From the NCBI RefSeq assembly GCF_000002075.1, contig NW_004798006.1, positions 254,994 through 318,993 on the forward strand: a stretch of 64,000 nt of DNA, given 5' to 3'. The notes below the pieces were generated by a model. That model saw nothing but the letters and a program-made list of their open reading frames with translations. It was not told the DNA's origin and searched no databases. The translations under genes were made by a program, and so were the position numbers. Shown here one piece after another: positions 3,264 to 62,800 of this stretch (the stretch's first letter is position 1; each line of letters begins with the position of its first letter). The stretch is from Aplysia californica. Lineage: Eukaryota.

Positions 3264-3800
3264 TTAAAAGCGACCAATTGACACACCAACCCCCCCCCCC
3301 CCCCCCACACTCGTCTCACGCGCTGATCAACACTGGGATGTCGGGTGAATTTGACTGGGGGGGGGGGGGGGGGGGCGAAATGTGTAACAATATCGCCACC
3401 TCAGAATTACAAAGTTTTATCTGACATTTCTGGCCGTTTGGAGTTATAATATTGGCCATGGGGTCAGAAAGTAAATGTTCTATCTGCCTGCTCTATCAAA
3501 ATTGTAAGATTATTCTGAGTCGCTGTCAACATATTCAATTCAGAGAGTTGCATTTGAAAAACTTGAAATATTGTAAAAACCTAAACATGTTGTTCGTCAA
3601 ATTTCTCAAAAACTAGGTACTGAACAGATGAAACTTTGTCATTCAGAGGTAGCTATATTATGTCGCAACCTCAGCATTACAATTAGAAAGTTCTATCTGC
3701 TCAGTAGGGAATACCTAGTCTTGAGAAATTTGACTGTCCAAAATGTTGTGTTTTACAATATTTCAAGCTTAGTAAGAGTTTAAGTTTAGTTTTAGTAAGG

Positions 3801-4305
3801 AGGCTCTCGTGGCCTAGAGGTTAAGGTGTTGGCCTCTCATTCAAAGGTCCCGGGTTCGAATCCGGGTAGCGACCGAAAAATGTTCTCTAAAATTGTCTCC
3901 TTTCACCTCCTTTCCTGCTCTCTAGCAATATTCTGTCGTCTGTTTCGTCTCCTCTTTCTGCCCCCACCCCCTCACCTCCTTTGCCCCCTCCTCTGGGATC
4001 CTGACTCTTTCTGCAGCCTTTCTACTGCTACTCCTTGGCTCCTCCTTACTGCTGTCTTTCTGACACACCCCTGATCTTCCGGTAGGACAGATCTACACCT
4101 AACCTTCTCGGACAAGAGCGAAAAATCTCGGAGGGCCCGTGTGCAAGTTGCGCACGTTAAAGATCCCTTCGTGGTCTAAAATCGATAAGAGTAGGCTTCG
4201 GCCGCCACCCGGGCAAAATTCAAAATTTCCTACCAACTGAAAATATTAGGTGTGTCCCGCGTGCTCATATGACCTTATGCAGTTGCGAGCGCCGTAAAAC
4301 ACTTT
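3801..4305 (+). mobile_element. tRNA-derived SINE with Meta-like central domain and the family A/B 3' stem-loop
   Basis: A box TGGCCTAGAGG, B box GGTTCGAATCC, central CCCGTGTG...GCACGTTAAAGATCCC...ATCGATAAGAGTAGG, tail GCTCATATGACCTTATGCAGTTGCGAGCGCCGTAAAAC. The Meta assignment is from my recollection of the consensus. Confidence 0.8.
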
Positions 4306-4326
4306 ACAAAAACAAACCAAAAAAAA

Positions 4327-6291
4327 GTTTAGTAAGGTATTTACGGCACTTGCAACACAATAAGGTCATATAAGTGCCGAAGATTAGAGGTGTTACAAGA
4401 GAGTAACAAACGCAAAAAAAGAAGGAGGGGAGATAAGGACGATAGATGTTTGACAGGAAAGAAGAAGCAAACACACCAGAGCTCCCGTCAACCACCCACT
4501 AGTAAGAGATTTACGGCACTTGCAAAACAAATACGTCATAGAAGCGCTGAAGATTAGAGGCGTGACTGGAGAGAAACAAACAAAACAAAACAACAACAAA
4601 AAAAAGAAAAACGAAAAGGAGGAGAAGACATATTGGAGTTGTTGGCAGGTCTAGTGAAGAGACTATCATTATAACATTATTTTTTTTAGTAAGAGTTTTA
4701 CGGCACTTGCAACACAATAAGGCCATGTAAGTGCCGAAGATTAGAGGTGTTACAAGCGAGTGACAAACACAAAAGAAGAGGAGGAGGAGAAAAGAGGACG
4801 ATAGATGTTTGATAGGAAACAAGGAGAAAACCACACCAGAGCACCCGCCAACCACCCACTCTAGTGAAGAGACTGGTTCCCCTCAAATGATAACATCTCC
4901 CACAGCTGTTATCAAATGCAATAACTCTCCCCCCCCCCCCTGTCACAGGGAGGAGGTATGACATCAGCATTTTGTGACAGCATCATTAACACATTGAGGA
5001 TGAAACGTGACACATTATTACACGTCCGACCGGTGGCGCAGACAAAAAGCGAAACTTCAGCAGCGGCACTTTTCGAGACATTATACAGAACAAAAGAACA
5101 AGAATTTTAGTTTCATTAAGAGTTTTATGGAACTAGCAGCACAATTGGGTCATATATGCACAGAAGATTAGAGTTTTAGTATTTTTGTTTTAGTAGAGGT
5201 TTTGCAGCGCTTGCAACACAATTAGGTCATATAAGCATCGAATATTAGAGGTGTTACAAGAGAGTTACAAACACTAAAAGAAGAAGAGGAGATAGAGACA
5301 GTAGATGTTTGATAGGAAAGAAGAATCAGACCACACACCAGAGCACCCGCCAACCACCCACCATTATTATACGTCCAACAGACAGAAGACAAAAGGCGAA
5401 GCTTAGGCGGCACATTTTGAGACATCACAGAGAACGAAAGAACACGAGTTTGTATGGTAAGTTGGATTTAGTAAAGAGCTTTGCGCCACTTGCAATGATC
5501 GCAATTAGGTCATATAAGTGCCGAAGATTAGAGGTGTTACAAGAGAGTAACAAACACATTCAAAAAAGTAGAAGCAAGGACAGACAATATTATAAGTACT
5601 ATAGATGTTTGATAGGAAAAAAAGAGCAAAAACCGCACCTGAGCACCCTCCAACCACCCACTTGCACAGTTAAAAAAGTATCGGTACACAATATGCAGCT
5701 GATTGCCCTTTTTGGGTTTCAGAATTTTAGTTTAGTTTTAGTAGAGGTTTTATGGCGCTCGCAACTGCATAAGGTCATATGAGCGCCAGAATAGATTAGA
5801 GGTGTTACAAGAGATTAACAAACATAAAAAAGAAGAAGGGGAGATAAGGACGATAGATGTTTGATAGGAAAGAAGAAGCAAACCACACCACATCACCCTC
5901 CAACCACCCACTCAGATTTTTACAATCAGTAGTGAGGAATCTGTGAGAATACCAAAGTTATGCTTCGCTGTCGTCGTACGCCAAAAACATCGCATCATAC
6001 CGCCGTACTGAAGTTGTGGAAGGAACAGAATGCCTGTCCTCGGTGAGATCAAGTCGACATTTACACTGTAAGTTACAGACACCATGATGATGGTTGCAGC
6101 TGCCACTAAGGTTGAAGGTTTTTTTTAAGTTTTAGTAAAAGTTTTATGGCGCTCGTAACTGCATAAAGGTCATATGAGCGCCAGTAGATTAGAGCTGTTA
6201 CAAGAGAGTAACAAACATTAAAAAAAGAAGGTGAGATAAGGACGATAAATGTTTGATAGGAAAGAAGAAGCAAACCACACCAGAGCACCCG
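4327..6291 (-). mobile_element. Cluster of family A ~180-nt retroposed elements (about 4327-4499, 4500-4625, 4681-4859, 5180-5361, 5468-5661, 5726-5911, 6120-6291) in an APIP intron; further copies at 1638-1907 and 7825-8019
   Basis: Shared consensus GTGGGTGGTTGGCGGGTGCTCTGGTGTGG...CGGCACTTATATGACCTTATTGTGTTGCAAGTGCCGTAAAACTCTT(ACTAA)n on the minus strand; several copies have flanking direct repeats. Confidence 0.88.
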
Positions 6292-6755: not shown

Positions 6756-9700
6756 CTGTTAAAAAAAAAAGAAGAAAAATAGACAGAGTAAGACACTGGA
6801 AGAAAATGCCACAAAGTTGTTAGAAAATGTAAGGAATATGAATTTCTGGATAATAATAAAAATACCCTCAAACTTAAACTTGGTTGTTTAAAACAAAGAT
6901 TTTTACAAGGGAAGCCCAGCATATTGGATGAATGTATAAATTTAGTACAGGATATGAATTTATAGGTAATCATAATACATTGTACCCTCAAATCTAAACT
7001 TGACTGTTTTGTTTGGGTTTTTTTATTTTAAGGAAGAGTAGCATATTGGAAGAATGCCTAAATTTAGTACGGGAAATCAATTTTTGGGTAATAATAATAC
7101 ACAATGTACTAATACCCTCAAACCTAACCGTTGCTGTTTAAACAAAAAGAAAAAGAATTTAAAAAAGGAAGAGTTGCATATTGGATGAATGCATAAATTT
7201 AGTACGGGATATGAATTTATGGGTAATAATAATACGCTCAAACCTAACCTTTGCGGTAAAAAAAAAAAAGAATAAAAAAGGAAGAGAAGCATAGATCGCT
7301 ATTTGAAGAGTAGCATATTGGATGAATGCTTAAATTTAGTACAGAATATGAATATACGGGTAATAATAATACTCTAAAAGCTAAACTTTGCTGTAAGGGA
7401 AAAAAATGGCAGGATAACATATTATTGGATGGACATATAAATTTAGAACAGGACATGAAATTATGGGTAATAACACATGTTAGTATCATCAAACCGAAAC
7501 TTCGCTGTTTAAAAAAAAAAAAAAAAAAAAAAAAACCAACGCAGGGTTACATATTGGAATAACACACATAAATTTATCAGTAAATGTAAGGGATGTGAAT
7601 TTCTGGGTACGTATTTTTAAAAATACAGCGAACTTACATTTGTAGAGTTCATTGATAGCATAAATTCATAGTCCATTTTCTACGCTCACATCGACACAAT
7701 TTAGATCTTGATGGCAAAAAGAAAATATCCACTCCTGTTTCAAAGAAGTTAGCCCAGCATCGCATGTACTGCACTGAGCAGTAATCCTAAATCAGGTTTG
7801 TCAACTTTTAAAAAACCCAATCAGTTTTAGTTTGTTATTAAGAGTTTTACGGCACTTGCAACACAATTAGGTCATATGAAGTATAAGTACTGAAGATTAG
7901 CAAAGTTACCAAATAGATAGTAACATATAAATAAAAAAAGGAGGAGAGACAAGAGATGATAGATGGTTGATAGGAAAGAAAGAGCAAACCATAGCAGAGC
8001 ACCCCCCAACCTCCCACCCAATCAGTTTGTCTGAGTAAAGAGAAGCACATCGACACAATAATGATCGATTAGTTTAGGGAAACAGTAAAACAGACAGACA
8101 GAAACAACAGATGGAAAGTCAAGAACTCAAGAACTATATAGGACCTACCAGTGACACAATCCAAACAAAACAAAAAGAAACAGAAAAACACAAGCGCACA
8201 CACAAACATTGACAACAACGACACCAAAAAGAAACCCTTAGAGCAAGCTGGAAAAAATATTAAATTAAAAAACCAAAAAAAAAGTAAAAAGAAACAAAAA
8301 CAGAACCAATCAAAAAGCACAAGCAAAATAAAACCAAAAAGAACCTACCCCCCCCCCCCCAACCCCCCTGTACAAAATAAAAGGGTACTCTTTTCACCTA
8401 AAGCGAGGCAAATGAATACGCTTTTATTAAAGACAAGACCAATAACTCCTTTCATGTGGCCAAAAATTGAGGAACGTTTGATTTCAGCTTGTCGCTACAT
8501 ATAAATCAATCTTTACTATTATTTATCACTGTGATTATCATCATTATTTATCATCATTACTACTCACCCTTGCTTTATGCTGACGCCTCCACCAGTGCCC
8601 GTTACCCAGCCTAAGTCGTAGAACTGACGGCACAAAGAAGGGATCAGCTTCCTTGGGTGTTCCTGGGGAAGACCATCAAAATTATATAATGACTAGCTGG
8701 ACCCCCGTTCGATGAAAGGAATGATCGGTGCATTAACATCATCTGTAAGTCATTGGCCTACTATATTTACACTCTACTGGAAGGGAGCAATAAATCTTGA
8801 GAGATTTAAAAAATTAGAAGTTCTAGATATAGAGAGGTACAGATTGTTTCTCTATTCCGCTTTCATGGTTGTACACTCCAGAAGTTCAAAGGTGAAGAAT
8901 CAGTGCCGCACGGCTAGTGAACGGAAACCCCACTTGTTTACAAGGGTGTCTTAGAAGATGGATTTTCCCAAGATTTGATCTAAATCTAAACAAAAGTAAT
9001 GAAAAACAGAAAATTAAACTACAGTGACTTCAGACTCCTCAGTAAAACTGTGCACCCTTTAAATGAGTCTGAACCACCGTTAATTTGTTCAAATTCGAAA
9101 GTTGAGTGGTTCCGAAGTTTTAGGCCACCAAAGTGACGAACTTTCACAAATATTTATAAGACGTAGAGATTATTGCAGGAAGCTTTTACAGAAAGAAAAC
9201 TTTGGCATTTGTGGTATAGCGGTTACAATGCATTTTTCTGTTGCATGTAAAGGACCGTTGACAAATTATGTCAGCTCGGGGGGGAAAGGGGGGGGGGGCC
9301 TTCCTTACAAAGTTGACGTCAACCATGATGCTCTGAACGGTTGGGAAGAAAAGAAAAGAAAGGAAGAAAAAATATTATAGACCACATTTTTTGGGCTAAA
9401 ATTAACAGTTACATTGAACCAAATTGATTGATTTATTTTTACCAAGCAGACATGATACTCTTATCTATTTTTTTGCTTTGTTTATTTTCCAAGCTGCGAT
9501 ATCCAATCTATTTGTTTTAAAATTATTTTGATAAGTTAAAGTTGTTAATAAATAATTTGACAGTTCAGGTATTTCTGTATTGTATTTTTATAATAGTTTA
9601 TATTTTTTAATTTTAAAATAAAGATCAACGGTGTAAATATAAAATGCATCCTGTACAGGTTGTATACATGTGCACATGTACATTTTGATTGACGTCAGCT

Positions 9701-11451
9701 AGAGGTAGGCGGGGGTCCTCGGCAAGATGACAGAAGATGACAAGAGGGGAGGGGGGGGGATCATTTTTGGGGCAAAATTTTAGCTGATAATGTCTTTTGT
9801 GAACAGTCCCTAAGAGACCCGACTTTGATTCCTGGGTGCGGAGACAATTTTTATCGAGAGTATCTCTCCCTCTTTCTGAAGAGATTTTGTATCCCTCACA
9901 GCCCAGGTTGGTCCTGTCAGACACGGATGGAAGCCCGCCTCCTAAATGATCTTAATTAATTGTGTCAATATAGGTGTAAAACATCTGCATTAACATTTCA
10001 ATTTAATTTATGAGTGAAAACAAAGAGCCTGTATTCAATTTAAATCAATATGATTGTTATTATCTTATAAATTATCTGAAACTTTCTCAGAGTAATGATA
10101 AAAGCAAAGCCTGTAGAATTTGTGTGTGAGTGAGGAACAAGTGAACAAGTACAGAGTCGAACCTGTGTAAGATGAAATTGTACGGGAGCCAGAAAAAACA
10201 TTCTGTCTTAGACAGGGGAATTTAGAAGGGGGGGGGGGGTTCAAAGGCCCAACCCGTGGGATCAAGGATCGCTTGTCCGATCGGAAAGCAGTGGTCAAAA
10301 CTTCACACCTCTCAATTGCTATCCTGTATGATAATGACACGTGTCAGTCTTACTTATCCAAATACCACCAGTTAGACCTATTAAAAACAGAAACATTTGA
10401 ACACCTCCTTTACTTCCACCCTTAGCCCCATCCATCGGTGTAACAAGCACAGTCAACCAATGCCACCCCTCACTGCCATCATGTAACAACGATTCGAGGA
10501 ACTCTTTTCTCGGCTGGCCGTACAATCAGGGCGGCAGGCATTGATAAATCTAATTTCACACCTCTAGCTTCTGGATACCCCCAGGAAAGTTTCTGTAGTG
10601 GCTCGGTACTCGAGCACTCTAACGGGCAGTCGTGAGATTTCACACCCACACCACCCTGACCATCTGCATCACTCAGGGCTCACATGATGGGGTAATATCT
10701 ACCCCCAAATTGCACCCCTAAGTTCCCCTTCCTCGCCCAGCGGCATGGCCATGGCGGTAAGTTTAGAGCCGGAGGAACCAAACAACTTGCGAGTTTTGTT
10801 TCATATCAGAGCTCAGCAGGCAAAGCATTTTCCGTCTTAGGTGAAACCCTAGGAAGGAAGCGGATTTTTCTTTCCCTTTATAGGCGTTGGACAGATTTCC
10901 GTTTTAGACATACCAAGCTTCTGTCAACGTTTGTTTCTTGTTGTTTTTAGGGCGCTCCCTCGTTTCCGCCCAACTCATAGTTCTCATGCCTCAGTTACCT
11001 TTAGGCTCTCTCTTTCTCTTTCCCCTCGCCTGCGTTTAAAGGGATTTTTTTTGTTTTTTCCCTTGTCCAATTTTGCCCTCTCTTCTCCTCCGTCAGCCAA
11101 ACCGATAAGGTGGGAGAAAGAGGGGGGGGGGAACGGGGGGGGGGGGAGGAGAAATTTTTTTTTACAATTTCCGGGTGGGGCAAAAAAAAGTGGGGCCAAT
11201 TTTTCCAATCCCCCCCCCCCCCCCCCCCCCACAAACAAAACCAAAAAAAAAATTTTTAAACTTGACACCCGCTTTTAAAACTCTCCTCGACAATGGATTG
11301 CCGACCTAGCCAATACCTACTAGATCTAGATTCTAGATCTATATCTATATCTAGATCTACATCTAGATTCTAGATGTGTACTTACATCGTCAAGTTCAGC
11401 AAAATCTGTGCCATCAGTAGAAACATCAGTATTAGCGGGGCGCTTCGGCAT
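6711..11451 (-). CDS. APIP: Methylthioribulose-1-phosphate dehydratase (APIP/MtnB), 5' part; exons 11451-11386, 8662-8568, 6755-(gap at 6710); later exons not found (in gaps or left of the window)
   Basis: Spliced translation [22 protein letters not shown]|[32 protein letters not shown]|[15 protein letters not shown] matches the APIP N-terminal motifs ([21 protein letters not shown]; [14 protein letters not shown]). Introns are GT-AG with consistent phases (0, 2). Confidence 0.93.
6820..7610. repeat. Degenerate ~125-bp tandem array (about 6 units) upstream of the APIP exon 3 acceptor
   Basis: Recurring GCATATTGGATGAATG..TAAATTTAGTAC.GGATATGAATTT..GGTAATAATAAT..CCTCAAAC. Confidence 0.85.
8568..8662 (-). 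CDS. APIP: APIP coding exon 2
   Basis: [32 protein letters not shown]; ttccccag acceptor, GTGAGT donor. Confidence 0.95.
8692..8975 (+). repeat. Dispersed repeat, second copy at about 62222-62520
   Basis: ~280 bp shared (TTCGATGAAAGGA...GGAGCAATAAATCTTGAGAG...TTTCCCAAGATT); class unknown. Confidence 0.75.
9251..9810. mobile_element. PIF/Harbinger-like MITE
   Basis: TAA|AGGACCGTTGACAAA ... TTTGTGAACAGTCCC|TAA: imperfect TIRs, 3-bp TAA TSD. Confidence 0.65.
10300..10930 (-). pseudogene. Possible heavily degraded LINE reverse-transcriptase remnant
   Basis: GC-richer island with frameshifted fragments in the expected order (SPKT..., LGV, SWG, IY...YG); recognised only by eye. Confidence 0.3.
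11386..11451 (-). CDS. APIP: APIP coding exon 1
   Basis: aaaATG start, 22 codons, GTAAGT donor in phase 0 matching the next exon. The peptide itself is not conserved, so the assignment is inferred. Confidence 0.75.
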
Positions 11452-13395
11452 TTTCGACAAAAAATCAAAAGAAGTAGCCTACAAACTGCTCAGGCTCAGC
11501 GAAAAAATGCAGAAAGTTCCAAACAGCAGAAAAAGCGAGGCCCTACCAAGTCCAAACGTAGAGTTCGGTACTAGATTCTAGTCTAATTTCTTGTGTAACA
11601 GCCTGACTACCAAACAAGTTGAGAATGAAGGAGGGCGACCGACGGGTGACTAGCCTAGGCTTGAGGAAAGAGTGAAAGAGAGACCGAGGGCCTGTTAACA
11701 TCAGATGTTTCCACTTTCCACTCTGGCACTGTTTACTAGTATACTGGGTGTGTTTACTACTTGCTTTCACTTTCTTTCCTTTCACGAAAAAGAGCAGTGA
11801 TGTACGAGTAATTTTTCGTATTCGATCAAAGATATGCAGGAAAAGGAAGCAACATCAAAAAGAGAATGCACGGCCATGTCACTTTGGTAGGCAAAAAAAA
11901 AAAATCGCCATAAGTCTCAACCATGAACTAAAGCCCTCAACTCGTTAAGACTGCAGATTGTGCGAGAGTGTCAGAAAAGAAAATATATGCGACAAATTCT
12001 ATTTTCCTATTCCTATTCTGTTTTCATACGTTCTATACTTCGAGAAAATAACTGACATAAAGATTAATAAATGGTTTAGGGGGGGGGGGCTACACCTGAA
12101 GGCTATCTCGCTTATCAGGGGATCAAATTTTACCAAATTTTGCATATTTAACAAGCATAGTAAGGAGTCAATCTGCAATCAAATTTGAGATAAAAAAAAG
12201 TTTCGTTTCCATGGATACGGCGCAGGCCATATTGGATTTTGTTGACATGTCTTACGTAATGAATTCCGCACTTATTTTTTTATGGAAATTGGTTGGGTTG
12301 TTGTTGTTTTTTGCATGCATGTTAGCAAACATTAGATCTAAAAATCTGTCTGTTGTTTATTCCTGAACGAATTAGAAAAGTCTTAATGAATTTTTTTCCT
12401 GAGGTCTATAGATGTAGTATTCAAGTTAGCGAAATATCCGCAAAAATCACACTCCGGACACCACCAACAAAAGTCTATTCCATATATAAAAAATACAACG
12501 GACAAGTTTTTAGTATTACATCTCTTCATTCTGTGAAAATTTCATGAAGATTGGATGAAAATGGTGGAGCTATTCAAAAAAGGGTATGAGAAAACGGCCG
12601 ATAAAGAAAAATAAAATATTTACTTTATGGTGAAATGGTGGTAACAAACATGCCTGGTATGGAGAAAAATAAGGCTTTTAGGGGTTCTTATGCGATGGAA
12701 TAGTTGTAGGAGATGCTGAAGAAGCTAAAAATACCTACAACTCAAATCTCAAATTCCATAATTTTGAGCCCCCCTGGCCCCTTTAAGGTATAGTTCGGCT
12801 GTAGCCGTTATACCTCTTTGCCTGTAGCCCAAGTCAGAGTGGGGTACAACGTCTTGATGATTGGTACTCTCAAAACTGGTTAAGACGGTTCAAACCTAAC
12901 TAATGAGTCAAGGGAATAATATATACAGGTGTTCATCTTACACACTGTCAATATTATATCATGTAAAAAAAAAAAATACGAAAGGAAGGAAATTGTTAAG
13001 ATGGTGTAAAAATTGTAGGCCGCGTCACAGCAAGTGGTGGTCATAGGCTTAAAAGGCGACTGTTGGGGCAGGTTTGACAGTACATGCAAAATCTCATTCT
13101 TTAAAGGTGGATCTTTTCATTTTATGCAATCAGTAACATTAAATTATGTCACCTAACAGGGGTGATAAGATAAACCAACTGTAGATTAACATAATTATCA
13201 TCATCTTCAGTTGTTTTACTCGGCTGGCGGTAGTTGCGTATATATTTCAATCAGAAAGAAAATTAATACTCAGGCCATAATAATTTTAAGTACCANNNNN
13301 NNNNNNNNNNNNNNNNNNNNNNNNNNNNNNNNNNNNNNNNNNNNNNNNNNNNNNNNNNNNNNNNNNNNNNNNNNNNNNNNNNNNNNNNNNNNNNN

Positions 13396-13432
<37 letters not shown>

Positions 13433-14323
13433 GGCTATTCTTTAAAAGTTCCTACAGAGCAGTGCTTTATTTTTTTAATCGAAGGTGAGTGTCATTCTCT
13501 CACCCATAACGAGCAAGTATACTATTATAACCTCTTTGTGTCGAAAAAAATCTTCGTAAAGCATTTCAGTAGACCCTATGTTATGTGCAAGTGGTGTTGC
13601 CAATTCCTTATTATTCTGTCCTGCCTACCAAACAAACAGTTCAGGAAGACGCTGTTTTGCTCTTCCTCTGGCTTCGCATTACATCAATGAATTGTGCATA
13701 TTATATCGATTTAGATTGAGCTCATAGACTTATATTATCTTGTATGACAGCCTAGATGGTGGACTGTAATGTACTTCGGGCTCGCTGTGGGGCGCACCCT
13801 TTAATCCATATGACAAGAGGGTGTTTGACAGACTGAACAAACGATACCGAAAAATTCGCTCTTCCTTTGGACGTAATGTTGACGCCTGTGGTGAGTGCAC
13901 TTTGCACCGAAGTTAGTTTGTTTGTTTTTGTTTGTTTTTTGTTGTATTTTGTTTTTAGGGCCGGGTGCAGTGACCATGACAGTACTCTATTTAGGATTAT
14001 AAGTCTATGCTGGAACTTGATCGTTGGCTTTGGATACCAATTTGTCATTTGATAGTCGAATGCACTTGTACTTGAAAACAGATGTAGATAAATATTGTTT
14101 CAATGTATAGATTAGCAGTGAAGAGCTAAAACAAGCAGACATAATGATTATTAAAGTTATCCAGGAAAGGTAATATTTTCTTTAAAACCTATGACAATTT
14201 ACTTTTAAATTTGATTAACAAAGCATACATTGTTAGAAAAACTTGGCATGTCAACATGTATTTTTCCCTTCCGGTGTCAAAGGTGCCTCCTGAAAAGAAG
14301 TGATGTCCCTGGATGCCCTCAAG
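11452..14323. promoter_or_regulatory. Divergent APIP/PDHX intergenic promoter region
   Basis: Start codons point away from each other 2.9 kb apart. An ETS-type CTTCCGG lies at about 14268 and a YY1-like CAAGATGGC overlaps the PDHX ATG. TSSs cannot be determined. Confidence 0.55.
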
Positions 14324-14465
14324 ATGGCAACTGCTATACACCGTTTCGGTGGCCGCCTCGGTCTTATGTGCAAATTAAAAAATATTTATAATCATTCACC
14401 TTCAAAAGACATTTTGGGCAGAGTAATTCAGACAAACCACATCCATTCAAATGCGCCTTTACTGG
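14324..14465 (+). CDS. PDHX: PDHX exon 1 (transit peptide)
   Basis: aagATGG Kozak; [13 protein letters not shown]...APLLG; GTAATG donor, phase 1 fits exon 2. Confidence 0.8.
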
Positions 14466-17400
14466 GTAATGCAAGACTTCACCTTTGCTGCAATGTCATT
14501 TACTTCGCCGTCTTCGCTAATTGATAATTGATTGCCTACTCCACGGTTTAAACCGGCAGGCTATTAAGTCTATGAACTTAAATTTTGATTATAATATAAT
14601 ATTTCTATATTCCTTCTTCACAGTGAAGGTGTTCACCCTTCACAGATGAATTAATGCCTGCGTAAGATTGAACCTTGGTGGATCCTACTCCGATGGACGC
14701 CAGAACTGCCTACTAATTTGAGCCTCCCCGTGCAATGAAATGCCATTGATGCCATACATTTCTGTTCATGGTCCGCTTTTCTTTTCTCTGTTCTTAAATT
14801 TTTTATTGTTTTGCATTCACGTGTTTTTAAAAATTATTATTGTTGCCGGGAGCCTGAACCCCCCCCCCCCCCCCCTCCCCAATGTTGTTATCAGTGCGCA
14901 TATATGATAAAAATATCATGTGGTATGTAAACACGGTGGGTCCACCAAAGTTAAATCCGGCCAATGCCGGTTTAGGCCTATATGTCTGTGATAGATAAGA
15001 TGATCATATAGCTTGATGATTTAATATTGCAGATTCATTCTTGGCGGAACTTGGGATTCATTTTATTAGTCTAGTACTGTGATTGTGAACTTAGGCTGCT
15101 GACGTTTTTTTTTAGGATTTTAATTTCACATTTATAAAATCTTTTCTTTTTTCCTTTTTAACACGATTCATACTAAAGTTAAGAATACCGGGAGTTATTT
15201 TTGTCTTTTTAAATGAGATTATAAAAGAAAATCTACTGTTTATTATCCAGATGATAAGCTGCTTTCTGAATTGATGAAATTAACTTTAAAAACTAAAACT
15301 TATTTGCATGCCTATCTTTACCTTTGTGTAGGTACTATCAAGATCGACATGCCCTCACTTTCGCCCACAATGGAAAAAGGCAACATTGTGAAATGGCACA
15401 AAAAAGAAGGTAAGTGATAGGTCAGACATTTACCAATGAGTCATGTTATGATTAGCTCGGACATCGTAAAGTGTCTGCTCGTGGGTGATGGGTCCCAAAG
15501 CTGCAGTTACAATGACCAAAGTCATTTTTAGTATTATAAACTGTTTTTTACAATTTCTGTATCGAGAAATAATTTTTAAAGTACCATTTACAATAAAAGG
15601 TAAAATTATTCTGTACTGCCTTGACACCACTTTGACGGTATTTTATTTCGTGAGAGTGAGAGATAAGGTCTGCCTTATTTAAAATAATAAACTCAAGTGG
15701 TCAGTTTGTGTTTTGGTTTGTTGATCTCTCTTCACCTTTATCTTGTTATAACTTATGCTGTTTATTTTCTCAGGGGACACTATTTCTCCGGGCGATGTTC
15801 TCTGTGATATCGAAACTGACAAGGCGATCATGTCCATGGATACAGAGGAAGAAGGCGTTTTAGCCAAAATTTTGGTAAGATCCCTCTGGCTTTTCCCCCC
15901 CCTCATCGATTACCTGGGCTCAACTACCTTTACCCTTTTGAGAACTGAATGTAAGCGTTATCATCCGGTGGACCATATAGATTCTAGAAGTCAACCATGA
16001 TAACTTTGTGGCTGCAGGAATTCCATCGGTCCGGGGGGGGGGGGCAGGGGGGGGGGGGCAAGGGGGGGGGGAGAGGTGTAAGGGAAGGGGAGGGAGAGAG
16101 AAGACCAGACTCAAATGGGCTAAGAATACTATGCTGAAAAGCCAGCCTTAAGAGAAGTTTCGTCCTAAAGAACCATTCTCTTGTTTTATAATAGCAGTTC
16201 TAGAAACCATTGAAAATTATTATATTGAACAGCATATATTTCAGACATATATTTCCTCCTTCTTTTCTGTGTAACGCTGTAATCTTCAGCACTTATGTGA
16301 CTTAACTGTGTTGCAAGTGCCATGAAACTTGTACGTGGGTGGTTGGCGGGTGCTCTGGTGTGGTTTGCTCCTTCTTTCCTCTTAAACATCTATCGTCCTT
16401 ATCTCTCCTTCTTTTTTACGTTTGTTGTTACTCTCTTGTAACACCTCTAATCTTCGGCACTTATATGACCTTATTGTGTTGCAAGTGCCGTAAAACTCTT
16501 TACTAAACTAAACTAAACTAAAACTTGTACTAAAACTAAACTCTTTTTTTATTTCTAGAACTATGCCTCTTTGTTGATGTTTAAGTTATTTAAAGGGGTA
16601 ATTCATGCACCCCCACCCCCCCACCCCGCTTCTCCCCCACCCACATACTCTCACGCGCACAAAAGAGTTTTGGATTGACCCTCAGATCCCAGAGAACAGT
16701 AAGGACGTGGTCGTGGGTCAGCTCATCGCGGTGATGGTGGAGGAAGGAGACGACTGGCAGAGTGTGGAGGTTCCCGCTCAGGCTGCTGCTCCTTCTCCTG
16801 CTGCAGCTGCTACTCCTGCTGCTCCTGCTGCTGCTGCTGCTGCTGCTCCTGCTGCTGCTGCTGCTCCTGCTGCTGCCCCAGCAGGCTCAGGGCAAGACCA
16901 CGGGTAAGTGAATTTATAGTTTTAGATTTTTAGTGAGGTTTTACGGCACTCACAACTGCGTAAGGTCATATGAGCGCCAAGGGGTGGATGTCAACAGACA
17001 AGTCCAAACGGGGAATCAGGCTTACTCTGCTCACCTCTTTAGCTTCAACAGCACAAAGTCTGCTTCGACTATCAAGGCACCCTGGAAATTGCAGTTCATA
17101 AGAGAGTGACCAACATACAAAAGAGGTATAGGAAAAATGAGCATAGTAAGGATGAGGAAAGAAAAAGCAGCAGTTGCCCTTATGTTGTTTCGGCACAGTA
17201 TGAGCATGACATTAATAAATCAACCCATTTACAATTCTAATGTGCCTAAAAACATGTTAACATTCCCCCAGGTTTGCCAAGTGGTTAGGCTCTCAGACTC
17301 ACAATCATAAGGTCGTGGGTTCAAATCCCGTCAGGGGCCCGACGTTGTGTCCTTGGGAAAGGCACTTAATAGGAATTTTCCTCACTTCACCCAGGTGGGA

Positions 17401-20400
17401 CTAGGTAACCAACTATAGATAGTGAAAGATCTTGTCAGTTAGTTAGTGTCTGAGCGCATAATAATCAGCTGCTTGCTGTGTATGCTTCCCGGGAAGCTAA
17501 GCTGAGAATGTTTCTGAGTGTTCTATGGTCTGCTGGGGTAATGATAATATAGTGTAAAGCGCATGGAGCTTGCTGCTGTGCGGGGATAAATGCGCTTTAC
17601 GAATGCTATTTATTATTATTTTTATAATATTATTAATAATCGCATTTATATATACATCACATATCCCACTTTACAACATACTCTGTGCACTTTGCAACCA
17701 TTCCTTATTGACTCAACGACCCCGCTGCTTTTCCCACTGTCAAATGAGAACTCGTCACAGGGATACACAGAGTGTTCGTGAACCATTGGTGTGTGGGAAA
17801 GGCACTGGGGTCGTTGAGTTGATACGGCAGGATAAATAAATGGTTGTGCACTTGCCAGTGGGTATGTGGCTAAGAATGACTGTCCAACTGTTTTCTCGTT
17901 TTTTTTGGTCTTTCAGAAGGACATGAAGGGACTCCTGCTTTACGTGTTTGTGTAACAAAAGCTTAAACTTTCATCTTTGAAAGTGTATCAGATCGCAATC
18001 CAATATCTGCTGTTCGGATGTCCCAAACTACAGCATCCACCAACAACAACAACTTCTTCCTCCCATCCCAGCCACAGACAATACCCTGTACTGCAGCAAA
18101 GAACATATATAAATGTGTCACAGAGTGGTAGAATCGGGCTTTCGTCAATTTTTGGGCATGTAAAGTTATTGGTATCATCTTAAAGTCTTGTTCATTTGTC
18201 TTACTTTAGAGGAAAAAATATCCATTTATCTTGAATACAAGTTGACACATTTGCAAAAGAAGGAGGTGGAGGTCGCCTGTTTTCAGAGGTAAAATTAGTG
18301 AGAAAATGGCCGCCAAAGATTAGTTATTTCCTTAGCTTGAGAGTCTGTGGGAACTGAAAATTAAAATTTTTAAATGCCTTTAATCAACGTTTATCAGTGA
18401 AAATCCAAACAGAAATGTGTTCTTTGATGGACATGAAAGGTGTTGATGAGCAAAAAAATAAAAATTCTATAAAAATCCGCCAATCTGCGGGAAAATGCCA
18501 GTTTCTTCACTTTGATTATTTTGATGAGCGCCCGATTTCACCACGCTGCCTCACATATGTCAAAGACCTCCACCTTTCTTGATATGTTATTGGGCTGAAT
18601 GGCACGTGCTCGAACGCTACTGCATGTAGATTAACAACAACCACAGAGCTACAACTCTTTCCTCCCATCCCTACCACAGACAAGTTTTAACATGGTACTT
18701 GGCCGAATGGAACATGCTGAAAGGATACTGGATCAACAAATGGTCGCTTTTAAGGACAAGTGGGCTGACCCAGTCTTCGGGGTTTTCAAGAAATCTTGAC
18801 CTACACCATAAGTGGGCATTGTCCTACCTATAGGAGAAGTTTCATTTCATTTGGGGTGTGTTTATTTGTTTAGTTGTAGAGAAAACTCTCCTTGTCTTTT
18901 AAAGAAACTGAACAAGGGGCAAAAACTTTTACCTTTTGATTTTCTCAAAACAGCATTTTTCAGGATAGCCCCCTTGTGCTTAAAAGCGACCTAATAACAA
19001 CAACAACAAAACATACAACAACAAAACATAACTGTAACTTTTCATTTTTCTCCAACTTCAGACACTTGATGGGCCCTAGCGTGAAAAAACTTCTCCAAGA
19101 GTACAACCTTCAGGCGTCGGCTATCCCAGGCACAGGACCGGCGGGAGCTTTGTTGAAAGGGTAAGGGCAAGCTGGCTGTGTGAGGTTAACCCTTCAAGTG
19201 TTGAGAACAAATAGGAAGCTGGCTGTATGAGGTTAACCCTCCAAGTGTTGAGAACAAATAGGAAGCTGGCTGTATGAGGTTAACCCTTCAAGTGTTGAGA
19301 ACAAATAGGAAGCTGGTTGTGTGAGGTTAACCCTCCAAATGTTGAGAACAAATAGGAAGCTGATAGTATGAGGTTAACCTCCCAAATGTTGAGAACAAAT
19401 AGGAAGCTGGCTGTATGAGGTTAACCCTTCAAATGTTGAGAACAAATAGGAAGCTGGCTGTATGAGGTTAACCCTCCAAATGTTGAGAACAAATAGGAAG
19501 CGTCGGTGGCCTAGTGGTTAGGCTCTCGGACTCGCAACGGTAAGGTCGTGGGTTCGAATCCCGTCAGGGACCCGACGTTGTGTCCTTGGGAAAGGCACTT
19601 TGCACAAATTTTCCTCACTTCACCCAGGTGGAAATGGGTACCTGGCTATAGACAGTGAAAGATCTTGTCAGTTTGATGGTGTTTGAGCGCGTGAATCCGC
19701 AGCTTGCACTGTATACTTCCTCGGAAGCTGAGAATGTTTCTGAGTGTTCTCAAAGGGTCTGCTGGGGTAATAATAGTTGTAAAGCGCATAGAGCATGCTC
19801 TTGAGCATGGATATGCGCCATATATAAATGCAATTATTATTAAGCTGGCTGTGTAAGATTAACCCTCCAAGTGCGGCTAAAAACAAATAGGAAGCTGGCT
19901 GTATGAGGTTAACCCCCCAAGTGTGGCTAATAAATAGGAAGCTGGCTGTGGTTTGCTCCTTCTTTACCATCAAACATCTGTCGTCCTTATCTCTTCTCCA
20001 AACATCTATCGTCCTTATATCTTCTCCTTCTTTTCTTTGTATGTTACTCTCTAGTATCCCCCCAAATCTTCAGCACTTTTATGACATAGGGGCCTATTCG
20101 TGTTGCAAGTGCCATAAAAGTCTTTAGTAAAATTTTAAAATTAAAACGCAATAGTGGGTGGTTGGCGAGTGCTCTGGTGTGGTTTGCTTCTTCTTTCCTA
20201 TCAAACGTCTATAGCTGTCCTCCTTTTTTTTTGTGTTTGTTACTCTCTTGTAACGCCTGAAATCGTAGGCACTTTTATGACCTTATACTTATAGTGTTTC
20301 AAGTGCCGTAGAACTCTTTTAAAAACTAAACTTCTTTTTTTTGTGTTTGTTTTTCTCTTGTGACACCTCTAATCTTCAACATCTATATGACCTTATTGTG

Positions 20401-23400
20401 TTGCAAGTGCTGTAAAACACTTACTAAAACAAAAAGTGAAATTTCAACGGACCTTGTTTTCTGGCGACAGTGACGTGCTGAGCTACATCAAGTCCCAGAA
20501 TCTGAGCAAGGTGGCCCAGCAGGTGGCAGCAGCAGCACCGGTAGCCCCGCCCCCAGCACCTGCAGCCACAGCGCCGGTGGCGTCAGCAGGCGGCAGTTTT
20601 GTGGACATCCCCCTGAGTAACATGAGGAGGACCATCGCCAAACGACTCACTGAGTCTAAGGTAAAAAATATCAGGGGTAGTAGGTGAATCATCCATTATT
20701 TATAACCTGCCCCTTAAGTATAGACCTAGTACTAGCAATGTCAACAAAGCTGGTACAACTGCTAGTACAAGATTTATTATAAGGATAGAATTAGGAGCTA
20801 ATTGCAGGTCTAGGTCTTTTGTCAGTGGAGATGTGGGTTGTGGCTGGCTAGCATTTCGTGTATTTCAGTTACTCCAAATTATTGAACAAGCTCTGTGCTG
20901 GAATACCAACGTATGTGGTATTTTTACAAAGGCGATTTACAAATAAACATTTCTGTTGTGTTGAGTATCAGTCTGTATTTCATGGGTAATGGTGACAGCA
21001 AGTTGGATAAAACTCGTCAAAGTAGCCAATTTCATTATTTTTCAGTTATTACCCCCCCTATATTGCGTAATTGCTCGTACATTACAACACAAAGAACCAT
21101 GCAACCCATCTATTGTGATAGCTTATTCAATTTCCTTTTCAATAGTATCAGGGTCAGTGGAAAAAAATTCTGCGCGCAAAGAGTTAAATCAAAACAGATG
21201 AACCTATTTTGATAGTTGTTCATCTGATGAATGAAATTCCAATATAAGGGTAGGCCTACATGAAAATGTGAATGCAGTAAATTATTTTTTTAATGTAAGC
21301 AGTAACAATAACTGAAATTTTAAGTCACCTTTACTTTCTCCACCAACTAAAGTGTATGCGTGCATGTGTGTTTTCTTCACCATTAAAGCTGTCGCAATAT
21401 AGTGAGGAAGCAGTTTTTCCCCCCATACTTTCCAGTTATTTTCACATAAAAACCTGTTTTCAAATTCGCTAGGCCAGCTGTTGTTCCCACTATTTGGTTT
21501 CTGTTTAAACCCATATTGGTTGTGTTGTGTTAAAACGGTCCTCTTTCAGTCTCACATCTACTACACAACTGCGTGTTTCAACATAGTTTTCCTCCACCTG
21601 TCGAAAGTTCTTGTTTATTTTCTCTGTGTGGGTGGTTGTAGGGTGTTCTGGGATGGTTTGCTCCTTCTTTACTATCAAACATCTATCTACCTTTAATTTA
21701 TCACTCCTGCTTCTTTTTTGTATGTGTTACTCGCTTGTAACACCTCTAGTCTTCGGCACTTATATGACCTTATTGTGTTGCAAGTACCGTAAAACTCTTA
21801 CTAAAACTCAAACATTTACTCTGTCCAACATAGTTTTTCTTAATTTGTCGAATGTTCATATCTCTGTTCTTAGTCCAACATAATTTTCCTTAACCCTATC
21901 CATACGCCCTGGGGTCATTTTGTACCACCGGGTTTGTATTCTTCATATTTTAGAATACTTCTAGTGCGAAGATCTCTTTTAAACTTTCAGTATTTCTCAA
22001 GAAATCATTTTGACAGACTGCTATGCAAAGCGTACGGATCTGATTAACGAGTAAACTTCCTCTTTGGAAAGTGGTGACACTGAGTTCTCTACGTCGTATG
22101 GATACGATAGTAAAACATGACGTACAAATAGGGTAAAATTGTGGAAAGTTCTCGTTTGTGTTCCCAGTCCAGTATAGTTTTCCTTAACCAGTGGAAGGTT
22201 CATATCTCTGTTTCTCAACCAGCGGAACATTCTCGTTTGTGTTCCCAGTCCAGTATAGTTTTCCTTAACCAGTGGAAGGTTCTCGTTTGTGTTCTTAGTC
22301 CCACATAGTTTTTCTTTACGTGTGTAATGTTCCCGTCTCTGTTCTCAGTCCAGCATAGTTTTCCTTAACCTGTGGAATGTTCATTATATCTCTGTTCTCA
22401 ATCCAGCATAGTTTTCCTTAACCTGTGGAATGTTCATTATATCTCTGTTCTCAATCCAGCATAGTTTTCCTTAACCTGTGGAATGTTCATTATATCTCTG
22501 TTCTCAATCCAGCATAGTTTTCCTTAACCTGTGGAATGTTCCCATCTCTGTTCCCAGTCCAACATAGTTTTTCTCAACCTGTGGAATGTTCATATCTCTG
22601 TTTCTCAACCAGTGAAATGTTCATTTCTCTGTTTCTCAACCTGTGGAATGTTCATATCTCTGTTTCTCAACCTGTGGAATGTTCATATCTCTGTTTCTCA
22701 ACCTGTCAAATGTTCATCTCTGTTTCTTAATCTTAACCAGTGGAATGTTCCCGTCTCTGTTCCCAGTCCAGCATCCCGCACGCCTACGCCTCCATTGACT
22801 CAGACGTGGGACCTGTGACAGCGCTGAGGCAGAAGCTCAAAGAGGACGGGGTCAAGGTCTCTGCCAACGACTTCATCGTCAAGGCCGCCGGGCTGGCTCT
22901 GCAGGTCGGTCGTCAGACAGGAGTGGTAGTGGGTGGTTGGAGGCGCTCTGGTGTGGCTAGCTTGTCTTGTCTCTTCTCCTTCTTTTTTGTGTTTGTTACT
23001 CTCTTGTAACGCCTCTAATCTTTGGCACTTATATGACCTAATTGTGTAGCAAGGGTCGTAAAACTCCCGGTAAAACACAAACGCTAACAACTGTCCGTCT
23101 GCGGGTGGTTGGTGGGTGCTCTGGTGTTGTTTGCTCCTTCTTTCCTATCAAACATCTATCATCCTTATCTTTCCTCCATTTTGGTGTTTATTACTCTCTT
23201 GTAACACTTCTAATTTTCTGCACTTATATGACCTAATTGTGTTGCTAGTGCAGTAAAACTCTCACTAAAACTATCTAATTTTCTGCACTTAAATGACCTA
23301 ATTGTGTTGCAAGTGCCGTAAAACTCTCAGTAAACCCAAAAAGCTAACAACTGTCCTTCTGTGTGTGTGTGTCTCACAGAGAGTGCCGCGAGTGAACGCC

Positions 23401-41774: not shown

Positions 41775-44700
41775 CTGTGGGGGACAGAAAAGATAAGATA
41801 AGATAAGGAAAGATAAGATAAGGTAAGACAAGGAAAGATAAGACAAGATAAGACAAGGAAAGATTAGATAAGATAAGACAAGGAAAGATAAGATAAGATA
41901 AGACAAGATAAGACAAGGAATGATAAGATAAGATAAGATAACATAAGATAAGATAGTACTTTATTATCCCAGAGGGAAATTTTTCCTTGGCTGTACAGGA
42001 CCGTAAAAACACATGCAGGTATACATAAAAAAATTTAAATTATATATATTACTCTCATTAAAATTCAATATGAAAGGAGAAGTAAAGCTGACAAATGTAC
42101 ATTTACATCAAATGCATCATTCAACCACATGCAGGAATTTAAATACTAAACCTTTGGAGTTATATACAGATACATACTCTAAGAGCAACACACATAACTA
42201 ACAAACAAACAAACAAAATTCACAAACTGAATTCCGAGCAAGGAAATAACCAGCTTCAAACAGATGGCAAACTTTCTCCTGTGTCAATGGGCTTTTTCTC
42301 AAAGCATGATTCTCTTGCAGTCATGTTTTTAGTTTTTAGTTCTAGTAAGAGTTTTATCACACTTGCAACTCAAGCAGTGCTGATAATGAGAAAAAGTCAA
42401 AAAAGAGGAAAATATTCCGACCCCGATGCCATCCTGAAATTTCAACATAGAACTCTAATGCTAACTACAATAATATAACACATACCTTTACTTTTGTAGT
42501 AATATTTTGGAAACAACAAAAAAAGCGGAAAACCACGGAAAACTATCAGCACTGAATAAGGTCATATAAGTGTTAAAGATTGGAGGCGCTACAAGAGAGT
42601 AACACTACACAAAAAATAGGGAGGAGAGATAAGAATGAGACATGTCTAACCAGCAAGAAGGAGCAAACCAAACCAGAGCACCCGCCAACCACTCACAGTG
42701 AGAGTATCACAGCACTTGCAACACAAATAGATCATAAAAAGTGCCAAAGATTAGAGGTGTTACAAGAAAGTGACATACAAAGAACAAAAAGTTTAAGTTT
42801 TAGTAGAAGTTTTACGGCGCTCGCGACTGCATAAGGTCATATGAGCGCCAACCACCGACAAACCTTCCAAATACCCACCCACCAACCTTCCAAATACCCA
42901 CCCACCCACAAACCTTCCAAATACCCACCCACCCACCCGCCAAGCACCAACATGGACACCCCCCCCACTCACCAAGCACCCACATGGACACCCCCCCCCC
43001 CACTCACCAAAGGCTCCAGTTCTTTCTTGTCTATCAGGTTGTACTCAGACACAAAATAGTAGAAGTGTTTGTAGCACGTGTTCACATGGGCCTCCTGTTG
43101 ACCATACAACACACACACTCGTCAGTACAACCAAAAAACCTTCCTTAATAATAAGAAATGACATTTATATAGCGCTCAACCCCGAATAAAGTCAGTTTGG
43201 AACTCTCTTCCCCAACCCTTGAGACATACAACATCTGAGTCTAAATTTAAGAAATCTTTAAAGACACATTTAATGACATCCTTTTTATGTCAGTAGATTC
43301 ATGTTCGGTACAATGTTATGTGAATGACTATGTATCCATTTATGTATTTTGTGAATTGCTTTGTGTATATTATTTTATGCTCATTTCGTGACGATGTGTA
43401 AGCGAGNNNNNNNNNNNNNNNNNNNNNNNNNNNNNNNNNNNNNNNNNNNNNNNNNNNNNNNNNNNNNNNNNNNNNNNNNNNNNNNNNNNNNNNNNNNNNN
43501 NNNNNNNNNNNNNNNNNNNNNNNNNNNNNNNNNNNNNNNNNNNNNNNNNNNNNNNNNNNNNNNNNNNNNNNNNNNNNNNNNNNNNNNNNNNNTAGCGTGT
43601 GTGAATATTGTTTGTACATGCATTTACATAAAGCGCCTAGAGCTGTGTTTACACGGGAGTGGGCGCTATAGAAATGATCTTCATTATTATTATTATTATT
43701 ATAACGTACACAGGCTCTGAGCGCTTTACAATACAGTACAACATACAACAGTAACATGAAACGTTGTGTTCTGACTAAAGAAAATTATTCCAAATATTCA
43801 TCTTATTAATTTAAAAACAGAAACGACTTTCAACACAAGCTAACACAATCGTTAATTACTGGAAGAAAGGAAAACCCAACGGCCACTTTAGGCCACACAA
43901 TCCCTCCCTCCCTCCTCCTCTTCCTCCATGTTCCAAACCCTTGGATCTGAAAATTCCTAAAATAGCATTCCAAACACAATTGGGTAATTACACAAACACA
44001 AAAGATCTGGACTATCTAGTTTAAGTAAGAGTTTTACGGCACTTGCAACACAGTGGCGAAGATTAGAGGTGTTACAAGAGAGTAACAAACGCAAAAAAGG
44101 TGGAGGAGAAAGAAAGAAGACAGATTTTGATAGGAAAAAAGGAGGAAACCACACCAGAGCACCCACCAACCACCCACACACAAGAACGGAGATTAAGAGA
44201 ACCAAAAGCTACCCCCCCCCCCCCCACTTTGTTCCCAATCCTTTGATCAGAAAATTCCTAAAGTAGCATTCCAAACACAATTAGGTAATTATCAAGTGAG
44301 TGTTTTATGGCACTTGCAACACAGTGAGGTCATTTAAGTGCTGAAGATTAGAGGTGTAACAAGAGAGTAACAAACACAAAAGGAGGAGAGATAAGGACAA
44401 TAGATGTTTGATACGAAAGTAGGAGAAAACCACATCAGAGCACCCGCCAACCACCCACCAATCGGGTAATTACACAGACAAGATCTGTGCTGTTTAGTTT
44501 TAGTAACAGTTTTCAGGCACTTGCAGTACAAATTGGGGGCTCCAGTGGCTAAGTGAGTTGTGAGTTGAGACTCAAAAGTAAAGTCAAGCACATGTCAGCG
44601 ACTCGGGATTTAGGTCGGTGGTCAGTGGGGCGTGTATCCTTGAGCAATACACGACAACTCTTTTTAGTTTAGTAGGGGTTTTTCGGCGCTTGCAACTGCG

Positions 44701-61627: not shown

Positions 61628-62800
61628 GTGGGTTGGCGGGTGCTGTGGTGTGGTTTGCTCCTTCTTTTCTACCAAACATCTATCATCCTTATAATCTCAC
61701 CTCCTTGTTTTTTGAGTTTGTTAATTGTAACACCTCTAATCTTCGTCGACACTTGTGTTGTTGCAAGCTCCGTAAAACTCTTTCTAAAAACAAAGAAAGA
61801 GTGGATAGTTATTTAATTTCTTTTCTTTCCTCTTCTAAATGACAGATGGGTAGGAGAAAGAGAAGAGCAGTCTGCTCCCAGAGACCTCCCCTGATTTTTC
61901 TGAACAGCCCAACAGACGAACCAGCTCCTCTCCAGTCCCCAGACATGGCGGTAGAGAATCCACTGACTGCCAAGACAGTTCCATTTGATGAAACCATCGC
62001 ATGGGTATTACTACATTTCTTCTTTTTTTTTTTATTATCAGGGGTGATGTCATTATCAGCTGTTATTTTCCCACTGTTATTTATGATAAATTTCCGTTGT
62101 TTCCACTGAAAAGAACAGCCTTTATTCTCACCATTTGGTGGGTGATCTGGTGTGGTTTGCTCCTTGTTTCCTACCAAACATCTTCTATCGTCCTGATCTC
62201 TCCTCCTTTTATGTGTTTGTTAGCTGGGCCCCCTTTCGATGAAAGGATTGATCGGTGCATTAACATCAACTGAAAGTCATTAGCCTATTATATTTACACT
62301 CTACTGGAATGGAGCAATAAATCTTGAGAGAAAAGTGACACATGTGTTTCCAAGTTGCCAAATATATTATAATAGATGTTATAGATCGATTGTCTACTCC
62401 GCTTTCGTGGTTGTACACTCCAGAGTTTCAAAGGTGTGCAATCAGTGTCGCACGGCAAGTGAATGGAAACCTCACTGACTTGTTTACAGTGGCGTCTTAG
62501 AAGACGGACTTTCCCAAGATTAGAACTCTGTGTGGACGAAACAAAGCATTTTGGAAAAATCGGGGAAAGCAGTTTGCGTGGATTTTTTAAAGTTAAGTCC
62601 TAGCCACATGGATGCTGTGAACACCTGCAAAGTTTCAAAGGTGTGGGTTAGGTAATAAGGGAGGAGTTTGTGCACAAGGCCTTCCAAGAATCCAAATCCA
62701 CTTTCATAAATAGATTATAAATATCTCGTAACGCCTCTAATCTTTGGCACTTATGACCTTATTGTATTGCAGGTGCTGTAAAACTCTTACTAACACAAAC
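61628..62800 (+). mobile_element. Family A copies in RHNO1 introns (61628-61790; 62140-62220 plus 62725-62800, probably one split copy)
   Basis: Same consensus on the plus strand. Confidence 0.8.
61846..62004 (+). CDS. RHNO1: RHINO (RAD9-HUS1-RAD1 interacting nuclear orphan)-like, first coding exon
   Basis: ATG directly after a polypyrimidine/AG acceptor. MGRRKRRAVCSQRPPLIFLNSP...TIAW resembles human MPPRKKRRQPSQKAPLLF...TITSW as I recall it. GT donor follows the W codon. Confidence 0.75.

Follow-up and report, generated by a model that had tools for sequence, protein, structure and literature searches.

The window, by which we mean the whole stretch of 64,000 nt analyzed here, is drawn from a 927-Mb genome. 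It carries a PDHX-like gene on the forward strand (PF00198), a MOB3-like gene on the reverse strand (PF03637) and, also on the reverse strand, a gene read from the sequence that we take to be APIP-like. Within 8600–15400 the APIP-like gene is arranged head to head with the PDHX-like gene, as in vertebrates. At 26809–26930 the beginning of the last PDHX exon, together with its acceptor, is present as a second, decayed copy, which fades into (ATT)n just ahead of the true exon at ~26951. Copies of three families of short element, termed A, B and C, occur in the window. Outside the intron described below these include:

3800–4311, forward strand: family C, a tRNA-headed SINE that has a 45-nt stem-loop in common with family A but ends A-rich; it lies antisense in the APIP-like gene and serves as a control family.
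16335–16530, forward strand: very young family A copy, identical 178-mers of which occur on other contigs.
16936–17269, reverse strand: antisense family B copy, its tail at most ~30 nt from the exon 4 donor.
19945–20437, forward strand: clustered family A pieces; the cluster stops ~40 nt short of the exon 6 acceptor.
23638–24022, forward strand: family B copy, with a C-run head and the same LINE-type tail, that sits inside an A-like copy and has a 15-nt TSD.
45191–45369, reverse strand: family A copy in a MOB3 intron, sense, ~100 nt after the donor.
47985–48402, reverse strand: family A copy whose ACTAA tail has expanded in tandem and stops ~37 nt short of a MOB3 acceptor (exon from PF03637).
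61631–61797, forward strand: family A copy ending ~50–55 nt before a probable acceptor at 61846.

The antisense family B copy at 16936–17269 and another at 49579–49979 are exceptions to the sense bias discussed below. The ACTAA tail at 47985–48240 has expanded to ~250 nt by nested tandem duplication, with periods of 27, 38 and about 105. Units comprising an element plus 60–90 nt of flank have been tandemly duplicated at 5020–5440 and 43960–44500, and thus there are locally more same-strand copies.

The intron between exons 7 and 8 of the PDHX-like gene contains two family A copies, here called E1 and E2, and a short direct repeat. All of the following lie on the forward strand:

22767–22904, forward strand: PDHX-like exon 7, with CAG/GT at its end (PF00198 profile positions 26–74).
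22905–23379, forward strand: intron of 475 nt, placed by exon continuity in the Pfam profile.
22929–23082, forward strand: E1, an older family A copy with an internal deletion, sense, with no visible TSD.
23083–23100, forward strand: left TSD copy, directly 3′ of the E1 tail.
23101–23342, forward strand: E2, a family A copy, sense, with its 3′ 65 nt duplicated (23202–23334).
23343–23360, forward strand: right TSD copy with CTAAC and a putative branch A at 23347.
23361–23379, forward strand: host (TG)n/pyrimidine stretch and acceptor CAG.
23380–23538, forward strand: PDHX-like exon 8 (PF00198 profile positions 76–128).

The intron is supported by the contiguity of its flanking exons in PF00198 (26–74, then 76–128). 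It is laid out as 24 nt, E1, the 18-mer, E2, the 18-mer and 19 nt that include the AG, and without both family A copies and one TSD it would be just 61 nt in length. The distances to splice junctions listed in the initial annotation are correct: position 22929 lies 24 nt after its donor and 45369 ~100 nt after its own, an AG follows ~40 nt after the tail near 20432 and ~55 nt after that near 61790, and the tail expansion at 47985–48240 does come as close to the MOB3 acceptor as had been said (~37 nt).

The sequence GCTAACAACTGTCC(G/T)TCT is present at both 23083–23100 and 23343–23360 with an identity of 17/18, and had been interpreted as the TSD of the inserted element. This interpretation stands, and the left copy adjoins the first base of E2 (23101) just as TSDs adjoin other copies. 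The repeat might have been part of a tandem duplication of the element plus spacer; its 18 nt exceed the 11–13-nt mode of TSD length, and tandem duplications of element plus flank exist nearby. Yet the identity of E1 with E2, 83.5%, falls within the range that E1 has with five other family A copies (82.7–86.4%), while the 18-mers are 94% identical, and tail-like microhomology also starts three other 18-nt TSDs. The 18-mer is therefore assigned as the TSD of E2, and we regard tandem duplication as highly improbable. It had further been proposed that the TSD duplicates the probable branch point. A CTAAC has indeed been duplicated, and its right-hand copy is in the right place, with the putative branch A 32 nt from the exon 8 AG; it is the sole CTRAY within 75 nt of that AG. 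The left copy lies directly 3′ of the decayed tail of E1, however, and so the motif may be derived from the element rather than from a host branch point. The first 6 nt of the left TSD (GCTAAC) may be E1 tail or microhomology. CTAAC is formed by tail plus flank in 11/139 young tails. Taken singly, the TSD at 23083/23343 is ordinary.

Family A is a non-autonomous non-LTR retroposon of ~180 nt. At least 2732 candidates were returned by a genome search. Unselected sequence has nine copies per 52 kb, which corresponds to a copy number of ~150,000, a rough figure with a wide error since it comes from a sample of only ~52–60 kb. The 5′ end is precise, with GTGGG (117/163 tail-bearing copies start at the first three profile positions), ACTAA is present in 124/139 high-scoring tails, and two pairs of the 3′ stem are altered on both sides between subfamilies. 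TSDs flank 87/169 full-length copies, compared with 5/300 shuffled flank pairs; 59 of the 87 are 11–13 nt in length, and four are 18 nt. The family is not a classical Pol III SINE. It has internal T runs, ARAGORN finds no tRNA gene in it and the head is without tRNA; an Rfam search at E up to 5 gave no match on family A copies, where a tRNA-SINE was weakly matched in the same search. Rfam models of snoRNA and of HDV-like, hammerhead and twister ribozymes gave no match to the A or B copies in 16200–24400, a search that divergent ribozymes could escape.

Families B and C, with a C-run head and a tRNA head respectively, share the 3′ stem-loop of family A, and the end of C is A-rich and lacks ACTAA repeats. 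Family B (L044:1388–1445) and LINE 5′ ends (L336/L339) both begin ACCCCC and fold back onto a G run; family B may thus have a 5′ structure of LINE type, or a ribozyme, although Rfam gives no match. Copies of all three families, and bare tails, have repeatedly inserted at position ~50–65 of family A (the AAACATCT stretch), in the window at 23638 and 29510–29573 and elsewhere at L033, L086/L256, L118/L290 and L232. This position is likely to be an internal insertion hot spot.

The probable partner is a LINE that ends in the stem-loop and tail of family A, with reading frames in L334–L341. Its ORF1 has zinc knuckles, and its ORF2 has an APE endonuclease, RT, RNase H and a C-terminal CCHC; there is a match to RVT_1, and homologues carry PF14529, PF00078 and PF00075. 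It belongs to the I-group. Given its domain order and the occurrence of Nimb elements in molluscs it may be a Nimb element; the matches of a homologue search included no named references. The complete copy L336 has a 12-nt TSD and a ACTAAACTAAACTAAC tail, and the LINE 3′ end is 80% identical to family A and 90% identical to family B over 46–48 nt. Family A is thus probably copied by an I-group LINE. Between the head of family A and the 5′ end of the single LINE family that was recovered, there is only low-complexity similarity. Three families ending GA, CAA or TAATACAGG, the top-ranked RNase H-bearing LINEs by Pfam, were considered as partner and rejected. A young RNase H LINE family with a (GA)n end and copies ~99% identical (L123–L130, L134–L136, L143) is distinct from the partner of family A.

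Is there a preferred sequence at the site of insertion? Targets were reconstructed from 75 A and B copies and compared with eight control zones. CTRAY occurs at the 5′ end of the TSD in 2/75 targets and in 1–6 in the control zones, and CTAA in 5/75 and 1–5, respectively. The sole signal is an A at positions −11 to −9 (51, 60 and 48%), with a weak AA start and 1–3 nt of A microhomology. The initial annotation had suggested that the ACTAA tail anneals to or targets branch-point-like motifs, and that this would itself produce the sense bias. Targeting of the motif is rejected, because its frequency in targets equals that in the control zones, and a motif of 4–5 nt is present on both strands. A mechanism in which CTAAC-like DNA at the nick pairs with the tail, making branch-point motifs the targets, would fit the site at 23083 and that of L243 (TSD start CTGAC, at 36 nt from the AG), and would also fit the enrichment of A where the TSD begins. 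Nevertheless it is refuted as a general rule by the control-level frequencies of CTRAY and CTAA, and a short motif on both strands cannot yield a strand ratio of 74:1 (see below); we give it scarcely any credence. Of the 39 youngest copies, nine are inserted into an older copy or directly abut one, compared with 6% expected, and E2 is one such case. In the L248 intron the insertion of a copy 14 nt from the AG repeated the final 13 nt of the intron; on the upstream side this repeat ends in CAC in place of the CAG of the real acceptor.

Strand and position were analyzed in 120 stretches of kinesin, myosin, DEAD, CCT and SNF genes located by Pfam, with exons modeled locally. The exon models were made with our own profile and splice-matrix procedure, with a sensitivity of ~75%, and are not RNA-derived, a limit that we count against the explanation favored below. 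Clusters of copies were counted in 94 gene spans (641 kb), three of them from the window. The sense bias that had been noted for family A is strong, at 108:13 sense to antisense, and family B gives 26:2; the control families give 9:8 (C), 23:14 (D) and 20:16 (E). LINE pieces are sense in 8/8 (5 genes). The ratio for family A is 74:1 in the kinesin, DEAD, CCT and window genes, compared with 34:12 in the myosin and SNF genes (p 3e-5). A part of the matches to antisense A in SNF genes proved to be family C tails and was reassigned. The kinase genes, mostly intronless and providing a rough low-intron comparison, have 8 clusters in 103 kb, 6 of them sense.

The youngest A copies are far less biased. 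Relative to older neighbours, nine have the same orientation and seven the opposite with one tie, while older pairs at the same loci agree 19:1. With exon evidence and ten more loci included, the youngest copies are 15:8 sense with three mixed (Fisher p 0.007 vs 108:13); their host strand was mostly read from neighbours and they represent one subfamily, which again counts against our explanation. Young B copies are 10:3 sense with two ties. Of the antisense survivors, 6/13 lie within 60 nt of a donor, compared with 0.8 expected, two of these corresponding to one duplicated exon, and none of the 13 in the gene set is near an acceptor. Given the ratio of only 15:8 in the youngest copies and the crowding of antisense survivors into the 60 nt behind donors, it is likely that the strand bias builds by selection, antisense copies being lost after insertion. 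Two results count against this. In full-length copies of the gene set the median is 98 bits for antisense (n = 7) and 145 for sense (n = 87), so that the antisense copies have diverged further and are not the younger ones. Moreover, with a crude acceptor matrix the median score is 0.4 for antisense A/B tails, 3.5 for antisense C tails and 5.2 for real acceptors; the A/B tails are not singled out.

Distances to splice sites were measured with repeats and N removed per intron, for 104 sense tail events in 48 genes. The distribution along introns is not uniform: 74/104 tails are in the 3′ half, and 37 lie within 100 nt of the AG, compared with 15.7 expected. A strict set of 182 introns has 17 near the acceptor (6.8 expected), and within 50 nt the excess is 2.3-fold (gene bootstrap 1.4–3.4). 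No excess is found for sense copies within 100 nt of donors (12, with 15.7 expected), nor for the control families C, D and E together within 60 nt of acceptors (1 on each strand, with 2.0 expected). The proposal that copies crowd splice sites thus holds for acceptors, in the other genes, but not for sense copies at donors, nor for the window alone, where 2 of 9 clusters lie within 100 nt of an acceptor, within chance of the 1.7 expected. The excess is present in high-scoring copies (observed/expected 9/3.2), older copies (12/6.2) and tail-only remnants (8/1.7). By gene class it reaches significance in the kinesins (11/2.8) and the myosins (5/1.7). Its absence from DEAD (1/0.7), CCT (3/2.9) and SNF (1/1.3) genes counts against our explanation, as does its weakness in TSD-intact copies (7/3.7, p 0.048; in the strict set 3/2.0, not significant).

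A tail lies within 75 nt of the AG in 26/350 introns (~7%), often with only a pyrimidine tract following it. CTRA is present at −45 to −14 in 18 of these 26, compared with 72/324 other introns. The over-representation of tails in the branch-point zone means that tails may supply branch points, one of the possibilities raised at the outset, an idea that is still live and now has numbers attached to it. Most tails read CTAAA rather than CTAAC/T, and the higher frequency of CTRAY in near-acceptor tails (8/25 vs 10/70) is of borderline significance (p 0.07), both of which we count against the explanation below. In this sample, then, a branch-point-like tail does sit before acceptors across the family, and such a pattern is unusual. 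The acceptor-proximal density is ~1 per kb, compared with ~0.17 per kb genome-wide (nine copies in 52 kb). Selection alone cannot lift the one to the other, so that preference or retention is needed too. It is likely that the acceptor excess reflects an insertion preference plus retention of branch-point-replacing tails, two components that the data do not separate.

How might the pattern have arisen? On balance we lean towards an explanation in which the repeat is the TSD of a LINE-copied retroposon, and the sense, acceptor-proximal pattern arises since the ACTAA tail can replace the branch point that is displaced, with antisense copies selected against. Insertion would occur by target-primed reverse transcription with 1–3 nt of A microhomology, in many cases within an older copy or immediately after one, E2 behind the tail of E1 being an example. 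The DNA that immediately precedes exons would be modestly preferred, with linker chromatin or polymerase pausing as candidate causes. Sense copies there would survive because the tail restores a U2-pairing site 20–45 nt from the AG, the copy then being retained, while other repeats and antisense copies in the acceptor-proximal zone would be lost. Antisense copies elsewhere would be purged unless too near a donor for splicing to their TTTTAG.

Both biases might instead arise at insertion, in transcribed genes, if the ACUAA tail together with branch-point-binding or LINE proteins brought the element RNA to 3′ splice sites in a fixed orientation. Such splicing-coupled targeting would account for the sense bias of A, B and the LINE, all of which end in ACTA repeats, and its absence from C, which has the same stem-loop with an A-rich end; it would also fit the density near acceptors of ~1 rather than ~0.17 per kb, the excess of high-scoring copies there, and the direction of the tail, which points toward the exon both in sense copies at acceptors and in antisense copies at donors. 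We nevertheless think it rather unlikely, for the youngest copies are only 15:8 sense, no exon is predicted within 1.5 kb of 33/56 young loci, and both mechanism and binding are hypothetical. A further alternative dispenses with insertion preference: copies would have entered short ancestral introns, the stretch from tail to AG being frozen as soon as the tail served as branch point, and later growth and loss elsewhere in the intron would have given the copies their acceptor-proximal appearance. The 61 nt of the 22905–23379 intron without its copies, the weaker excess in TSD-intact copies and the strongest enrichment near acceptors in tail-only remnants (8/1.7) are all as expected on this basis. 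However, high-scoring and older copies are in similar excess, and five of the seven very young copies with both flanking exons predicted sit in the 3′ half of the intron; we judge intron growth to be improbable as the explanation.

We have found no report of family A, or of acceptor-proximal enrichment, in the literature covered, with most subscription papers and Repbase outside its scope; the family is possibly named in Repbase. Nimb LINEs (I-like) have been placed in molluscs, and ACTAAA precedes the tail of one family of the LP-SINEs or Nimb-mobilized SINEs (PMC4758252). Like family A, the LP-SINEs are short and TSD-flanked, with 3′ tandem repeats, no small-RNA head and a CT-rich stretch after the head; unlike family A, strand or splice-site bias is not among the features reported in the part consulted, and five short motifs had no match in four of the five supplements of that paper (PMC4758252). 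Bipartite non-autonomous LINEs are similarly non-Pol III and short, with a LINE 3′ end and a precise 5′ end, but their described sources are RTE, Ingi, Vingi and R2 rather than I/Nimb (PMC5786205), and the family A head matches the 5′ end of the recovered LINE only in low complexity. The bivalve HCD-SINEs also accumulate in genes, as clustered copies and tandem arrays, with Nimb partners, but they are tRNA-headed, and the sections seen contain no analysis of orientation to the gene or of acceptors (PMC11481361).

In mammals, intronic TEs are under-represented around exons, above all next to acceptors (PMC3088655). The sense bias of Alu elements near exons is ascribed to selection against antisense copies with cryptic acceptors (PMC3088655), with dog SINEC_Cf as a further case (10.1101/2020.10.27.358119). 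Family A shares with these the sense excess and the presence of survivors very close to exons at donors, but differs in that its tails are enriched near acceptors and its strand bias extends along whole introns. Branch points derived from TEs are known for single loci, such as the MIR/Alu sequence in BLOC1S2, where retroposon sequence is likewise predicted as a branch point (PMC6822395). Such cases are single loci that make new exons (PMC6822395), whereas family A occupies the branch zone of constitutive introns, ~7% of those sampled.

The region before the acceptor, the most TE-depleted zone in mammals (PMC3088655), is here enriched for one abundant family on one strand, with a tail shaped like a U2-pairing site. 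A bolder reading, which we offer tentatively as possible though doubtful, is that the (ACUAA)n tail is a portable branch point. The LINE system would be drawn to 3′ splice sites of transcribed genes, licensing its own insertion where other elements cannot sit; the branch point of thousands of introns (~7% of those sampled) would have been taken over, with later copies behind old tails renewing it. If the tails are used, a core splicing signal would have been rewritten across a genome by a retroposon. Branch points could then turn over and introns grow by a route that is open to testing, and the family would be an example of a parasite that cuts its own cost by bringing along the signal it disrupts.
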